Below are positions 1,953 to 22,605 of a stretch of 64,000 nt of DNA, in pieces. Below the pieces are notes generated by a model. The model made no database searches, was not told where the DNA came from, and worked only from the letters and a program-made list of their open reading frames with translations. Within the stretch, counting starts at the first letter, position 1. The number at the start of each line of letters is the position of its first letter. The stretch comes from a phage: the sequence record PX667085.1, one strand, 5' to 3'. The position numbers were made by a program, and so were the translations under genes.

Positions 1953-1980
1953 TTGACTTTAGTATTAGTTTTAGTATAAT
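1953..1980 (+). promoter_or_regulatory. sigma70-type promoter TTGACT-16-TATAAT
   Basis: Near-consensus -35 and -10 hexamers read directly. Confidence 0.6.
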
Positions 1981-17977: not shown

Positions 17978-18919
17978 ATGGTGTTAATTGGTAGCCGTGC
18001 ATTGCAAATTCATGCTATGGACATGGGAAAAGACTTGTATCGCCCTTGTGTAGATTTAGATTACCTGTGTACAGAACAAGAGTGGGAAGAATTATCAAAA
18101 ATGTTCTCTCAAGAGGAGTTTGTTGAACTTGTAGAACGTAAAGGAAACAAAGGCCATGTCAAAATGATAGCTGGTGCACATTTGGAATACGATATTGCTT
18201 CTCAAGGAGATAGCACAGAAGCTTTGATTAGTTATTGTGAAGATTCTGATGATGTTCGTCGAACTTACGCTGGACATGTTGTTGCTCCTTTAGATGTGCT
18301 CTACCTTCTTAAAATGAGTCATCGTTTTAAAAAGGATAGTCCTCACTTCTTTAAAACTATGAAAGATATTCATTTCATGCGGTCACTGGGCGCAAAGATC
18401 CCAGAAAATCTTAAGAGTATTTATGAGTTGCGTGAGAAAGAAACATACACTTACTCTCATCCGAACTTAAACGTAAAAAGTAAAGACTTTTTTAAAGGTG
18501 ATGAGGTTCCGTATGTTTATGATCATGATTCTATCCATGAAGCAATCGCGGTAATGGATGCTCCGGCATATAAATCTTATATGAAAGATGGAAGTGAAGT
18601 TATGACCAGCAAAGAAAAGTTTTTTGCTCAACCAAAACATGTGCGCCTGTTAGGTGTTTATGAAGAAGCGTGTGTTTTGGCTTTGGAACGTTCACAAATT
18701 CCTTTCGGTGGAGAGATCGGAGGTCCAACCCCTAAGCAAAGTTTTATAATGGCTTTATCTAAAGTCTGCACATCCATCACTAGTGGTTGGTTTAGGGAAT
18801 ATGCTTGGGAAAACTTTTATGTTGTTATTAAGCTATATGAAAACATGGGCGAAAACGACTATGTTGAACGTTTTAAAGCTAATCAACATGTAGTAAAGCC
18901 TTTTGAAGGAGGTTATTAA
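17978..18919 (+). CDS. hypothetical protein (313 aa)
   Basis: Long ORF with RBS GAGGAG; no family recognised. Confidence 0.6.
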   Translation: MVLIGSRALQIHAMDMGKDLYRPCVDLDYLCTEQEWEELSKMFSQEEFVELVERKGNKGHVKMIAGAHLEYDIASQGDSTEALISYCEDSDDVRRTYAGHVVAPLDVLYLLKMSHRFKKDSPHFFKTMKDIHFMRSLGAKIPENLKSIYELREKETYTYSHPNLNVKSKDFFKGDEVPYVYDHDSIHEAIAVMDAPAYKSYMKDGSEVMTSKEKFFAQPKHVRLLGVYEEACVLALERSQIPFGGEIGGPTPKQSFIMALSKVCTSITSGWFREYAWENFYVVIKLYENMGENDYVERFKANQHVVKPFEGGY

Positions 18920-18920
18920 T

Positions 18921-19316
18921 ATGTGTGGATATCTTTCAGAAAGTTATTTCAAAGTGACGCATGAGGATTTAGAAAAAGCACGATTGAAACTGACAGCTAT
19001 TATTGAATACTCTAATACTGTTGATCACAGATTAAAGACTACTAAAGTATCTGTTCCTTGTTGGTTAGGTTTACGGCATAAAATAATGTCTCAACATGAC
19101 CATGTTGTTCGAGAGATGCATGGTTGGTGTTGGTTTCACGATGTGGCTCTGCATTTTGGTTATATTACAGAAGAAGAGCATAGATTCTGTGAACTAACAT
19201 ATCGTATTCCAACCCTTCACGATTTAGATTTGTGGAAGAAAGCAAACGAGATTTTTCTTACAGAAAGTGATTGGCGTAAAGTTATGGCTTGTCTTGAATG
19301 GAGGGGTAATGAGTAA
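18921..19316 (+). CDS. hypothetical protein
   Basis: ORF; ATG after AGGAGGT. Confidence 0.5.
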   Translation: MCGYLSESYFKVTHEDLEKARLKLTAIIEYSNTVDHRLKTTKVSVPCWLGLRHKIMSQHDHVVREMHGWCWFHDVALHFGYITEEEHRFCELTYRIPTLHDLDLWKKANEIFLTESDWRKVMACLEWRGNE

Positions 19317-19992
19317 AACAGTTTTGTCTATGTTTGACGGATCTGGAATCATGGTGTTACGTTATGCCGAAGCAGGTCACAAGTGTTTTTGTGTAAACGC
19401 TGATGAAGGGGATCACGGTAAATACGAGGTTAGGATGGAGCACCCAAACATAACCTATGTGAATGCCTGGATAGATTCTACATTCAACCCTGAAGATCAT
19501 GGGATACCTAAACCCGATATTATTTTTGGATTTCCACCTTGTACTATGTTAGCAGGTAGTGGTAGCAAACACGAACGTAGCACAGAGGAATTAGATGAAG
19601 CTTTAGCTAATATTCGTGTAGTGGAAGCTTTGGGTAACAAATATAATGTTCCTTGGATGATTGAAAACCCAGTAGGTAAACTTTCAACCTTATGGCGTAA
19701 ACCCGATTTTTACTTTGATCCTTATGAGTATGGTGGGTATTTGTTTGAAGAGGAAGGAAGCTTTCATCCTAAAATGCCTACCCGTGATGGGTATACAAAG
19801 AAAACTTGTATTTGGCACGGCAATGGTTTTGTTCAACCAGTGAAGAAACCAGTAGATCATATAGGCTGCTTCTGGGGTTGGAAAAGCTTAGGCGGAGCTA
19901 GTGCAAAAACAAAACAACTTAGATCCCTAACCGCACGTGGTTTTGCTCGTGCCGTGTTTTTGTCTAACAATCTTCTAGATAAGGAGAAATAA
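19309..19992 (+). CDS. compact DNA cytosine-5 methyltransferase-like protein
   Basis: FDGSG (motif I-like), GFPPCT (PC catalytic motif-like), ENPVG (ENV-like); shorter than typical C5-MTases. Confidence 0.45.
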   Translation: MSKTVLSMFDGSGIMVLRYAEAGHKCFCVNADEGDHGKYEVRMEHPNITYVNAWIDSTFNPEDHGIPKPDIIFGFPPCTMLAGSGSKHERSTEELDEALANIRVVEALGNKYNVPWMIENPVGKLSTLWRKPDFYFDPYEYGGYLFEEEGSFHPKMPTRDGYTKKTCIWHGNGFVQPVKKPVDHIGCFWGWKSLGGASAKTKQLRSLTARGFARAVFLSNNLLDKEK

Positions 19993-20645
19993 TGTCAAAT
20001 TCAAAACCAGTAGTTGCTTATCAAGTAGATCGTAATGATGGTGAAGGAAGTGTTGTTATTTTCAGTACACACGGTCTTGAGGCTCGTCGAAAAGGTGCAT
20101 ATCGTTTAGAATGTGAGTTTGAAGACTGCACAAGCCACCGTGTCAAACAATTCGATCAATATGCTGATAAAGGCTTCGTCCCTATCAAAGCCTTACTGGA
20201 AGATGGTTGGTGGGTATATTCTGCTTTTGATTACTCAAGACTGGAGGAGTCAGCCTCGTGCGCCTCCGAGATCGAATATGATGATTACTATGACACTCTC
20301 TACCTTCCAGAATGGCTTGTCTTTTCTCCTGATGAAAGAAGTGTCTGGAAAACGTGGGAAGAAATGGAGAGACATGCATATAGCATCAATGAAGCTTTAG
20401 ATCGTAAAGCTTGGTTTATTGAGGCAGTAAAGGCGGCATACCCCCAATTCTCATTTTGTGATTTCACTGGTGGCCCAGGATACATTACACATACAGCCTC
20501 TTTTGAGTTTCCTGGTTCACGTTATAAGGGTAATGTTTATTGGGACTGGGATGAAAATAAACAACCTTCGGCTCAAGACTTCCGTTGCTATGTTTGTCAA
20601 GGCGATCAAGAAGCCCTTGACAAATACCTACAAAGTCTGGTATAG
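19992..20645 (+). CDS. hypothetical protein
   Basis: 217-aa ORF. Confidence 0.55.
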   Translation: MSNSKPVVAYQVDRNDGEGSVVIFSTHGLEARRKGAYRLECEFEDCTSHRVKQFDQYADKGFVPIKALLEDGWWVYSAFDYSRLEESASCASEIEYDDYYDTLYLPEWLVFSPDERSVWKTWEEMERHAYSINEALDRKAWFIEAVKAAYPQFSFCDFTGGPGYITHTASFEFPGSRYKGNVYWDWDENKQPSAQDFRCYVCQGDQEALDKYLQSLV

Positions 20646-20661
20646 TGCCAGCATCTGAACA

Positions 20662-20692
20662 AAGCCTCCTGTTTCAGGGGGCTTTTCTTTTA
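20662..20692 (+). terminator. intrinsic terminator
   Basis: GCCTCC-TGTTTCA-GGGGGC hairpin then TTTTCTTTT. Confidence 0.6.
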
Positions 20693-20703
20693 TAGGAGGG
20701 AAT

Positions 20704-21189
20704 ATGTTTCAAGTAAATGTCAATGTGCATAATAGTTACTCTGATTGTGAAACGTGTGGCTATAATTCATCTAATGTTGTTCGTATTAGTGGCGATTTAG
20801 GAGAAGCTTCTTTTGGAGAAGAAGCAAGTTGCTTTAGTGGTATGGATGCAGAATGGAATGATATTGCACATTGGTTAGTGAGCAAACTAAAAGAAAAAGA
20901 GAAACCATTTCCTACTCTGCTTGATCGTTCTCTTGTGGAAGATGCAGGTAAAGCATATGCAGACTATGCGTATGCAGACGGGAAATATTTGGAAGATGAT
21001 AAGGCTAACCATTTGCTTTATGTTTACTATGAAGCTGAATCTGCCTACGATAATTATTACAGCATGTCTAACATCCTACGTCTGTTTGCAGAGTTTGATA
21101 TTTATTTCGAAGTAGAATTTTCAGAAGATGATACTTACGAGTACAATTCTTATGATCCATTTGAGGAGGAAGAATGCCAAGACGAGTGA
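20704..21189 (+). CDS. hypothetical acidic protein, translationally coupled to Sir2
   Basis: 161-aa ORF overlapping the Sir2 start by 16 bp. Confidence 0.55.
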   Translation: MFQVNVNVHNSYSDCETCGYNSSNVVRISGDLGEASFGEEASCFSGMDAEWNDIAHWLVSKLKEKEKPFPTLLDRSLVEDAGKAYADYAYADGKYLEDDKANHLLYVYYEAESAYDNYYSMSNILRLFAEFDIYFEVEFSEDDTYEYNSYDPFEEEECQDE

Positions 21190-21989
21190 TTTTTGTAAGC
21201 GGTGCAGGTTTAAGTGCAGACAGTGGGATTCGAACATTTAGAACAGACACAGATAGTGGTCGTGCTTTATGGGAAGAATATGATTTAGAAGAGGTCTGCG
21301 ATATTGGAGCTTTCCAAGCAGGTTATCGTGTTAGAACATCTCCAGATCTTCCAGTGGTCGGTGGTGTAGACGAGAACGGTATGGATTTGTATGCCAAAAC
21401 ACACGAATTTTATAACAAAAGACGTGTTGAGCTTAAAGATGTACAACCTAATGCTGCACATATTCAAATAGCAAAGTGGTTTAAGGAATATCCTAACCAA
21501 ATAGTAAACTTGACAACAAACGTTGATGATCTACTAGAGCGAGCAGGTGTAGACAGAGATTCTGTTATTCACGTACACGGCTATCTTCCTGAAGTAGTTT
21601 ACCGTATGCATCCTGGAGATTACAAAACACTGGTAGATATTGGTTACAATAGTATAAACATAGATGATTATAACTGGGTGAAGCCTAATGTTGTATTTTT
21701 TGGTGAGGCTGCACCTTTGTATGCAGATATGGCTCACTTGTTCGATACTTTGACCATGCAAGATTTGGTTGTAGTAGTAGGATGTTCAAACCAAGTTATC
21801 AATTTTAATTGGGAATTATTTCCTGCACTTAGTATGGGTACAAAAATGGTTGTAGTTAACCCTGGAGTTAATTACGAAGAAACACTTCTCTATGAAGATC
21901 GTGGAGTTTTTGTTTACCGAGAAAAAGCTGCAACAGCCTTCAGCAATGAAGGTTTCATTAAAATGGTCGAAGACCACTTAAACAAATAA
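21174..21989 (+). CDS. Sir2-family NAD-dependent deacylase/NADase-like protein
   Basis: GAGLSADSGIRTFR nucleotide-binding motif, TTNVDDL and HVHG motifs. Confidence 0.75.
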   Translation: MPRRVIFVSGAGLSADSGIRTFRTDTDSGRALWEEYDLEEVCDIGAFQAGYRVRTSPDLPVVGGVDENGMDLYAKTHEFYNKRRVELKDVQPNAAHIQIAKWFKEYPNQIVNLTTNVDDLLERAGVDRDSVIHVHGYLPEVVYRMHPGDYKTLVDIGYNSINIDDYNWVKPNVVFFGEAAPLYADMAHLFDTLTMQDLVVVVGCSNQVINFNWELFPALSMGTKMVVVNPGVNYEETLLYEDRGVFVYREKAATAFSNEGFIKMVEDHLNK

Positions 21990-21996
21990 ACCACTC

Positions 21997-22017
21997 AAGG
22001 GGCTTCGGCCCCTTTCT
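21997..22017 (+). terminator. intrinsic terminator
   Basis: AAGGGGCTTCGGCCCCTTT hairpin. Confidence 0.7.
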
Positions 22018-22032
22018 TATTAGGAGAATAAA

Positions 22033-22305
22033 ATGACTGAAGAAATCCGTGATTACTACCTTGCACATTACGTTTACTACTTTGCCAATGCTACACAAAA
22101 AGGGGAAGGTAATCTTTACTTGGCAACAGGACATGGAACAGGCGTTAGGAAATCAAATATTGATAATGCCTTGGCTCAAGTGGCTGCGGGGCTAGAAGAT
22201 AAACTTCAAACACCTGTAGTTGTAGTGATGCAAAATATAAGTTACTTAGCAAGTTGTACTGAAACCGAATTTAACGCGTCTGAGACGCAATCTAACGAAG
22301 AATAA
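22033..22305 (+). CDS. hypothetical protein
   Basis: 90-aa ORF, last plus-strand gene before strand switch. Confidence 0.5.
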   Translation: MTEEIRDYYLAHYVYYFANATQKGEGNLYLATGHGTGVRKSNIDNALAQVAAGLEDKLQTPVVVVMQNISYLASCTETEFNASETQSNEE

Positions 22306-22307
22306 AA

Positions 22308-22332
22308 CAAAGGCACCCAAGTGGGTGCCTTT
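22308..22332. terminator. bidirectional terminator between convergent genes
   Basis: AAAGGCACCCAAGTGGGTGCCTTTT, T/A tracts on both sides. Confidence 0.7.
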
Positions 22333-22374
22333 TCTATTTTAGAGCGTCTCTGTTCGATTTAGGTGGGTTCTAGC

Positions 22375-22605
22375 TTACTTGTGTAGTGCTCTCTCGTATA
22401 ACTCAATGATCAATTCATCCTCTACTGTAATACGCGCCATTTGATCCGTCTTAAGTATTGTTGGTTGGTAGTGGTGCATTTCACTATTGATACTACAATC
22501 CCATTCGTCATAACCTAAATACTCTCCTACATGGACCTTAACCATAAAGGGAAACGGGTTATCTACCAAAAATGCCATACAACCTTCTTCGATTTTATTT
22601 AACAC
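22375..22605 (-). CDS. hypothetical protein
   Basis: 76-aa ORF, start of minus-strand small-gene block. Confidence 0.5.
   Translation of the reverse strand: MLNKIEEGCMAFLVDNPFPFMVKVHVGEYLGYDEWDCSINSEMHHYQPTILKTDQMARITVEDELIIELYERALHK

Follow-up and report, generated by a model that had tools for sequence, protein, structure and literature searches.

A predicted zinc-free sirtuin of CobB/SIRT5 type in a phAPEC8-like coliphage and the acidic protein encoded beside it

Introduction

What does a sirtuin do for a virulent coliphage, and is the small acidic protein whose gene overlaps the start of the sirtuin gene a partner or a neighbour? Both questions are raised by a Sir2-family gene in a stretch of 64,000 nucleotides (nt) of phage DNA (sequence record PX667085.1), hereafter called the window, by which we mean the whole of the stretch that was analysed. 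The window comes from a phAPEC8-like coliphage of the genus Phapecoctavirus (Stephanstirmvirinae). A preliminary description of the locus had proposed a Sir2-family protein in a two-gene cassette, bounded by terminators and completed by a dedicated partner, that could modify host proteins, manipulate pools of nicotinamide adenine dinucleotide (NAD) or counter NAD-depleting defences. We tentatively arrive at a different picture, in which the protein would be a zinc-free sirtuin of the CobB/SIRT5 type that acts as an NAD-dependent lysine deacylase with a preference for acidic acyl groups, and in which the acidic protein would not be one of its subunits.

Results

The phage sirtuin and its catalytic residues

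Both open reading frames (ORFs) of the preliminary description, one of 161 and one of 271 amino acids (aa), were confirmed on the plus strand with an overlap of 16 nt (Table 1). The 271-aa protein matches the Pfam family SIR2 (PF02146), and no other Pfam family, with E = 1.9e-22 and a score of 80.5 bits against a cut-off of 24, so that the three Sir2 motifs from which it had first been recognised, GAGLSADSGIRTFR (aa 10-23), TTNVDDL (aa 114-120) and HVHG (aa 133-136), are genuine and not due to chance. It matches PHROG 2162, "Sir2 (NAD-dependent deacetylase)", over aa 2-271 (2.8e-104) and is 100% identical to the "putative NAD-dependent protein deacetylase" of phage Schickermooser. The closest solved relatives by sequence are E. 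coli CobB (7.6e-19, ~28% identity), followed by Sir2Af and SIRT5, and the CobB alignment matches GAGxSxxSGIRTFR, FYNxRR, T-x-N-[IV]-D, H-x-HG and FGE. The AlphaFold2 (AF2) model of the protein (predicted local distance difference test, pLDDT, 89.4; predicted template-modelling score, pTM, 0.86) together with Foldseek revealed the Rossmann and small domains of the sirtuin fold, with a template-modelling (TM) score of 0.82 to CobB (1s5p), scores of 0.75-0.82 across CobB and Sir2Af1, and SIRT5 also among the best matches. The top 50 fold matches in the PDB were all classical sirtuins and included no defence-type SIR2 protein; likewise, no PADLOC defence model matched either the sirtuin or the 161-aa protein at E <= 0.01. 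On the strength of these profile and model comparisons the 271-aa gene encodes a real sirtuin that is CobB/SIRT5 (class III) like, and not one of the ThsA- or DSR-like SIR2 proteins among which a place had also been considered for it.

Alignment of 25 family members that are 56-94% identical to the window protein showed that G10-A11-G12, S14, S17-G18, F22-R23, Y80, R83, N116, D118 and H135-G136 are invariant in all 25. The catalytic H135, the N116/D118 pair and the NAD-binding loop are therefore intact, and the loss of catalytic residues that the preliminary description had named as the sign of a pseudo-enzyme was not observed. The stretch F79-Y80-N-K-R83-R84 aligns with FYNARR of CobB, and its Y-x-x-R pair is likewise invariant in the 25 homologues. 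Judging from these residues, the sirtuin is apparently catalytically active. That it is a pseudo-enzyme or a decaying gene without a catalytic role strikes us as most improbable: the zinc site is lost (see below), and the sir2 gene annotated in the T5-like phage DT57C (NC_027356.1 46526-46636) matches the query only over aa 194-229, but all catalytic and NAD-binding positions are invariant in the family, the ORF is full length in hundreds of genomes, the model is a confident one, and the gene has been transferred intact between lineages more than once. The DT57C gene itself may be truncated or highly divergent.

Candidate reactions

The reaction that we favour would proceed as in deacylating sirtuins. 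NAD+ would be bound, the acyl-lysine oxygen would attack C1' of the nicotinamide ribose with departure of nicotinamide, H135 would promote the ensuing attack by the ribose 2'-OH, and free lysine and O-acyl-ADP-ribose (ADP, adenosine diphosphate) would be released. In SIRT5 the Y-x-x-R pair binds the carboxylate of acidic acyl-lysines, and the phage enzyme with its invariant Y80-x-x-R83 would, like CobB and SIRT5, prefer negatively charged acyl groups of the succinyl or malonyl type. Host or phage proteins present early in infection would be the likely substrates. The sirtuin family is strongly acidic (median isoelectric point (pI) 4.95, net charge -14), which suits basic protein substrates better than RNA. 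On the basis that the catalytic residues and the Y-x-x-R pair are invariant, that the close structural relatives are deacylases and that an acidic enzyme fits basic substrates, we cautiously, and at somewhat less than even confidence, prefer deacylation to the RNA-repair role that has been predicted for this family.

Several observations weigh against deacylation. First, the Cys4 zinc site is absent from all 25 members examined, none of which has more than one Cys at aa 137-170 and of which the window protein has none there, so the zinc-binding Cys residues whose conservation was to be checked are missing; in addition, the Q of TQNxD is replaced by T115, which is invariant in the 25 homologues. 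With the zinc site gone and Q changed to T, substrate binding may differ from that of the known deacylases. The aa 137-170 segment is kept at full length, with strands predicted at 136-144, 152-155 and 168-173 in the AF2 model. Second, the deacylase models of NCBIfam all match, yet far below their cut-offs (106 versus 243 for the subfamily model and 86 versus 320 for the CobB equivalog), which makes the protein a distant class-III-like sirtuin and not a CobB orthologue. Third, the sirtuin of Salmonella jumbo phage 7t3 carries FYNTLR and not FYNKRR, and does not keep the Y-x-x-R spacing. Fourth, T4 and lambda are reported to be restricted by host CobB (PMC4271551), and a plain CobB mimic would therefore bring no obvious gain to a phage. 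Fifth, our literature search returned no experimental or biochemical study of any member of the phage sirtuin family. Finally, the gene neighbourhoods of related sirtuins point to another function: in WalterGehring (rV5-like; bas51_0216) and Mydo (gp165) the gene stands in a run of RNA ligase, cREC, (kinase), Sir2 and DNA ligase genes, and in T5 a gene for an HAD-type phosphatase with a DIDGVLN motif follows Sir2.

The family is widespread. A tblastn search found the sirtuin in 990 phage records, the protein database holds 1801 clusters of the family, and the carriers comprise T5-like phages, rV5-like Vequintavirinae, Mydo, Klebsiella, Salmonella and Vibrio phages and 121Q-type jumbo phages; the window sirtuin is 52% identical to that of T5, 47% to that of WalterGehring and 56% to that of Mydo. 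Iyer, Burroughs, Anantharaman and Aravind (2022; PMC9503650) described a distinct viral sirtuin clade and, from its company of RNA ligase, cREC, kinase and HAD genes, predicted a KptA/Tpt1-like role in RNA repair (section 3.7.3); the acidic-protein gene context of the sirtuin is not mentioned in their survey. In this scheme, healing of a 2',3'-cyclic phosphate end would leave a 2'-phosphate on the RNA, and this phosphate would be moved to ADP-ribose, yielding ADP-ribose 1''-2'' cyclic phosphate and a 2'-OH; the sirtuin would work jointly with RNA ligase, cREC, kinase and phosphoesterase on tRNAs cut by host anticodon nucleases. We regard this as possible but rather unlikely for the window protein. 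It draws support from the gene runs just described, whose sirtuins are 47-56% identical to ours, from the Y80/R83 anion pair, which could hold a phosphate, from the loss of the zinc site, which hints at an altered substrate cleft, and from the fact that the Phapecoctavirus genome holds a whole RNA-repair cluster (phosphoesterase, RNA ligase, kinase, cREC, DNA ligase and MazG). This intact cluster, however, contains no sirtuin and lies outside the window at ~25-31 kb from the sirtuin gene, which is part of a separate, predicted early unit. Moreover, so acidic a family would be out of the ordinary among RNA-binding enzymes, the evidence from gene neighbourhoods stems from few lineages with a gene order inherited by descent, and no experiment in support of RNA repair emerged from the literature search. 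In phage anhysbys the gene at 104654-105010 (L015 9155-9511) is annotated as "putative RNA ligase and tail attachment protein"; its product is a cREC-domain homologue with 54-59% identity to the cREC proteins of rV5-like phages and Mydo.

The proposal that the phage uses its sirtuin to manipulate NAD pools or to counter NAD-depleting defences found no evidence in our analysis. An NADase or protein ADP-ribosyltransferase that depletes or re-routes host NAD+, or that serves superinfection exclusion in the manner of defence SIR2 or SirTM proteins, is in our estimate very unlikely. Sirtuin folds are capable of such chemistry (PMC9503650), and the 7t3 homologue is encoded ~2.2 kb downstream of a gene for nicotinamide phosphoribosyltransferase (L020 1-736 and 2965-3726), but the window protein resembles no defence SIR2 model, its best relatives in sequence and fold are deacylases, no variation occurs at H135 and F22, two residues that support the chemistry of deacylation, and a virulent phage needs NAD+ for its own replication. 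Neither did Pfam, PADLOC and the local genes disclose a partner of the macrodomain, HerA, TIR, SLOG or Argonaute kind. In ten proteins encoded upstream, Pfam scans for domains related to NAD or ADP-ribose (macro, Nudix, SLOG and NADAR) found none of these, the sole match being a calcineurin-like phosphoesterase ~6 kb upstream. The transferase encoded near the 7t3 Sir2 gene recycles nicotinamide, a by-product of sirtuins.

The acidic neighbour

The 161-aa protein had been put forward as a dedicated partner of the sirtuin and as probably coupled to it in translation. As to coupling, the 16-bp overlap is present, and a strong Shine-Dalgarno (SD) sequence for Sir2 inside the upstream ORF is compatible with it. 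As to partnership, three lines of evidence bear on the claim. First, the acidic protein occurs in 131 phage records versus 990 for Sir2, and ~860 of the 990 Sir2 records are without it. Adjacency of the two genes is confined to the Stephanstirmvirinae, where it is found in both genera, usually with an overlap of 13-16 nt; in AV123 the genes do not overlap. Second, no Sir2 was found within 6-8 kb of distant homologues of the acidic protein in five independent contexts; these homologues belong to GAP32-type jumbo phages, to one viral contig, to a T4-like contig and to a further metagenomic context. In GAP32, none was detected in the 4 kb before the homologue or in the 54 kb after it.

Third, the two genes have been inherited in different combinations. 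Compared with Justusliebigvirus alia, protein identity is 96% for Sir2 and only 37% for the 161-aa protein, 67% for the 217-aa protein encoded before it and 46% for the 90-aa protein encoded after Sir2. By contrast, comparison with phAPEC8 gives 71% for Sir2, 86% for the 161-aa protein and 99-100% for the flanks. Sliding DNA identity places the exchanged core at ~21150-21850 in both comparisons: against alia it is 93-100% in the Sir2 core and ~50% in the flanks, against phAPEC8 53-73% in the core and 97-100% in the flanks. As judged from these identity profiles, the Sir2 core moves between phage lineages separately from its flanks. The rarity of the acidic protein, its distant homologues without Sir2 and the independent exchange of alleles together leave the notion of a dedicated partner unsupported. 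We infer that the acidic protein is not an obligate subunit of the sirtuin; with its three conserved Cys (Cys3), it is probably a co-transcribed, lineage-restricted neighbour with an early function of its own.

A true functional pair, in which the acidic Cys3 protein would regulate or inhibit the sirtuin, mimic its substrate or serve as its targeting subunit, or in which the two would form an anti-defence module, we hold to be quite unlikely. Its best arguments are that adjacency and the usual 13-16 nt overlap persist in both genera although the acidic protein retains only 37% identity between them, that a shared promoter is predicted, and that the acidic family is consistently highly charged (-16 to -34 in 19 of the 20 homologues) and fast-evolving, like many phage mimics and inhibitors such as Ocr and ArdA. 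Against it stand the many Sir2 phages without the acidic gene, the distant acidic homologues without a nearby Sir2 (in GAP32, none in a further 50 kb downstream), the nearly identical Sir2 proteins that accompany very different acidic proteins and the converse case of phAPEC8, the lack of overlap in AV123, and the genes that precede Sir2 in T5, rV5-like phages and Mydo, which on comparison proved not to be homologous to the acidic gene. In Cronobacter phage GAP32 (L010 4001-4531 and L021 504-1769) an RNA ligase gene lies ~4 kb after the homologue, GAP32_166, and within ~14 kb come genes for tRNA nucleotidyltransferase, Nudix hydrolase and a macro-domain protein; no Sir2 was found in this stretch.

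The 161-aa protein was rightly described as an acidic protein of unknown family: its net charge is -27 and its computed pI 4.05, and it matches no Pfam, NCBIfam or PADLOC family, PHROG 9509 being its only match. Net charge ranges from -15 to -34 in 20 of 21 family members, and C15, C18, G38, A41 and C43 are kept in all 21 aligned members, the three Cys residues lying in the N-terminal beta domain. An exhaustive profile search across 1.84 billion representatives produced 17 hits, two of which (P0016 and P0018) are long repetitive adhesin-type proteins and were discarded as spurious; the family amounts to ~15 sequence clusters, and locus searches with three sub-alignments of the family returned three loci only. 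The protein has no fold relative in the PDB, where a search with the family profile gave eL21 only as a weak match (E ~0.03) that we did not accept. The C-terminus, EEECQD, is conserved because the SD sequence and start codon of Sir2 are embedded there. The first ~40 codons, which encode the Cys-bearing beta domain (window 20700-20830), are 68-72% identical in DNA to phAPEC8, compared with 100% in the middle of the gene, a pattern that suggests mosaic or diversifying evolution of this patch. We also set aside the possibility that the acidic protein supplies a zinc ribbon in trans, since the sirtuin keeps its full-length, Cys-free small-domain segment.

In being small, predicted to be early, of very high negative charge density and fast-diverging, the 161-aa protein resembles the acidic mimic proteins Ocr and ArdA. 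The likeness is a functional analogy, as no similarity in fold or sequence was detected, and the three invariant Cys suggest a metal or disulfide site, which Ocr and ArdA lack. The protein is a reasonable candidate for an early host-interference protein. A further reading, in which the phage sirtuins would not be protein deacetylases but zinc-free enzymes for an anionic non-protein substrate (RNA 2'-phosphate in a Tpt1-like reaction or another nucleic-acid end), and in which the sirtuin of the Stephanstirmvirinae would be uncoupled from the repair cluster and cooperate with the fast-evolving acidic Cys3 protein as a new-fold nucleic-acid mimic, regulator or anti-defence factor, appears unlikely to us.

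The transcription unit

The preliminary description had placed the pair between two terminators. Both hairpins are present (Table 1), both are annotated ARNOLD terminators in Schickermooser, and alia (Justusliebigvirus) has hairpins at the equivalent positions; terminator-like hairpins number 10 in 7 kb versus 4.4 +/- 2.2 in shuffled sequences. The boundaries that they were taken to mark are, however, probably crossed on either side. Upstream, a sigma-70-type promoter lies within the last codons (3' end) of the 217-aa ORF, ahead of the first hairpin; it is conserved in phAPEC8 and reaches 12/12 matches to consensus at the equivalent site of alia. This promoter is predicted to start an early transcript with the genes for the acidic protein and Sir2, and host RNA polymerase would transcribe it. 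The first hairpin (RNA fold -18.9 kcal/mol, z = -2.0) begins 15 nt past the promoter and so would also be a stem-loop in the 5' untranslated region (5'-UTR) of that transcript; by its structure it can terminate upstream transcripts, too. Downstream, no plus-strand promoter was detected between the second hairpin and the gene for the 90-aa protein, which is probably the last gene of the Sir2 transcript, the second hairpin probably being leaky.

On the basis of a promoter before the upstream hairpin and a promoter-less 90-aa gene after the downstream one, an early transcript of three genes with a leaky terminator inside it is likelier than a sealed two-gene cassette, and it is probably the most economical interpretation of the unit. 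Such a transcript would comprise the 5' hairpin, the 161-aa protein, the sirtuin with its overlapping start and own SD sequence, the leaky terminator and the 90-aa protein. The latter has no SIR2 domain according to Pfam, yet the records of ESCO13 and Ro121lw name it "Sir2-like protein", probably through an annotation slip.

The same layout recurs elsewhere in the window. With the criterion of a sigma-70-like promoter of at least 11/12 matches, a GC-rich hairpin within ~10-40 nt, an SD sequence and an ATG, it was found with promoters at 1953-1980 (+), 20617-20646 (+), 43475-43447 (-), 50693-50665 (-), 50969-50942 (-) and 60660-60632 (-). The order of promoter, hairpin and SD sequence thus looks like a general 5'-UTR design of predicted early transcripts in this phage, and hairpins that are scored as terminators may also be stabilising 5' stem-loops.

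Source phage and gene order

Over bases 19900-22400 the window shares 99.3-99.6% DNA identity with ECO340P1, anhysbys, Schickermooser, ESCO13 and others. The plus-strand order is Dcm-like methyltransferase, 217-aa protein, 161-aa protein, Sir2 and 90-aa protein; from the 217-aa protein onwards it is kept in Justusliebigvirus, where another cytosine methyltransferase occupies the first place. The Dcm-like methyltransferase of the window (19267-19992) has 241 aa, and the enzyme at the counterpart position of alia is a cytosine methyltransferase of 330 aa (L011 3159-4148). The plus-strand block that ends with Sir2 begins with a 313-aa protein (window 17978-18919) bearing DUF7277 and DUF7275 (7.5e-76). 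A PDB search with the 217-aa protein yielded no relative, and neither Rfam nor a tRNA scan gave a match anywhere in the window. Four records labelled "Campylobacter phage" (MG065639, MG065650, MG065654 and MG065689) contain near-identical copies of this coliphage region and are probably mislabelled or contaminated.

Table 1. Positions in the window of the sirtuin gene, its conserved elements and the surrounding features
Feature	Position	Strand	Basis or remark
Promoter, sigma-70-type, TTGACA, 18 nt, TGgTATAGT	20617..20646	+	11/12 matches, extended -10 TG
GC-rich hairpin and T-tract	20661..20695 (hairpin 20661-20685)	+	11-bp stem, then TCTTTTAT
Very acidic protein, 161 aa, PHROG 9509	20704..21189	+	N-terminal beta domain, helical bundle, disordered acidic tail
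Recombination module, Sir2 core (approximate limits)	21150..21850	+	sliding identity scan, both comparisons
SD sequence for Sir2, GAGGAGG	21163..21169	+	inside 3' end of 161-aa ORF; strong
Sirtuin, 271 aa, zinc-free class-III-like, PHROG 2162	21174..21989	+	Pfam, CobB alignment, PHROG, AF2/Foldseek
NAD loop G10-A11-G12...F22-R23	21201-21242	+	CobB alignment
Y80/R83	21411-21422	+	CobB alignment
T114-D119	21513-21530	+	CobB alignment
Catalytic H135	21576-21578	+	CobB alignment
Cys-free counterpart of zinc module, aa 137-170	21582-21683	+	alignment, AF2 model
Intrinsic-terminator-like hairpin after Sir2	21997..22014	+	ARNOLD -13.9 in Schickermooser
90-aa protein, PHROG 15991	22033..22305	+	syntenic in both genera; 19 nt after 21997 hairpin
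Bidirectional terminator, plus-strand block meets convergent minus-strand genes	22309..22332	both	scored on both strands; annotated in Schickermooser and phAPEC8

Discussion

The finding of a sirtuin at this locus is real but ordinary: the identical protein is deposited and annotated, hundreds of phage genomes already carry an annotation of the gene, and the family and its clade are already described computationally. The preliminary view of a phage Sir2 that manipulates NAD with the help of a dedicated partner finds only partial support. What our analysis adds is the family-wide absence of the zinc site, the class-III signature and the detachment from the RNA-repair cluster in the Stephanstirmvirinae, together with the swapping of Sir2 alleles, the early-promoter layout and the orphan acidic Cys3 protein. 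About a thousand sequenced phages of enterobacteria and Vibrio carry a member of the sirtuin family, among them T5, rV5-like candidates for therapy and jumbo phages, and the family dispenses with a zinc site that classical sirtuins need. A role in deacylation, if true, would amount to a phage-driven reset of host lysine acylation, and Tpt1-type RNA repair by a sirtuin, if true, would be a reaction new to the fold. As the locus described here shows, the sirtuin is separable from RNA-repair genes.

Comparison with known systems places the protein at varying distances from each. With the defence SIR2 proteins (ThsA, DSR1/DSR2, SIR2-HerA and SPARSA) it has the superfamily fold and the NAD+ substrate in common, but it lacks a PADLOC match, a match to them among the top 50 folds and their sensor or partner domains, no HerA, TIR, SLOG or pAgo gene was seen nearby in Pfam scans of the neighbouring proteins, and its carrier is a virulent phage. 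With the SirTM-macrodomain pairs it shares the arrangement of a sirtuin and a small adjacent gene, although the adjacent gene here does not encode a macrodomain. The relation to Tpt1/KptA is one of functional analogy: should the RNA-repair prediction be right, the chemistry would be the same, that is, attack of an oxyanion on C1'' of NAD+ followed by attack of the 2''-OH, whereas the sirtuin fold is unrelated and the analogy rests on neighbourhoods in other phages. Closer at hand, the other phages of PHROG 2162 (T5 "cobB", rV5-like phages, Mydo gp165 and 121Q/PBECO4) exhibit the same invariant residues and the same loss of zinc ligands, and the window sirtuin differs from them in that it does not stand beside RNA ligase, cREC, kinase or HAD genes and instead follows a lineage-specific acidic gene. 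The nearest characterised enzymes are E. coli CobB (1s5p, 6rxj) and SIRT5. Compared to these, the window sirtuin is only ~28% identical, strongly acidic, devoid of the Cys4 site, changed from Q to T in TQNxD and extended by a segment of ~20 aa at ~aa 49-70, but it has in common with them the NAD loop, the FYNxRR pair, the N and D of TQNxD, the HG and the FGE.

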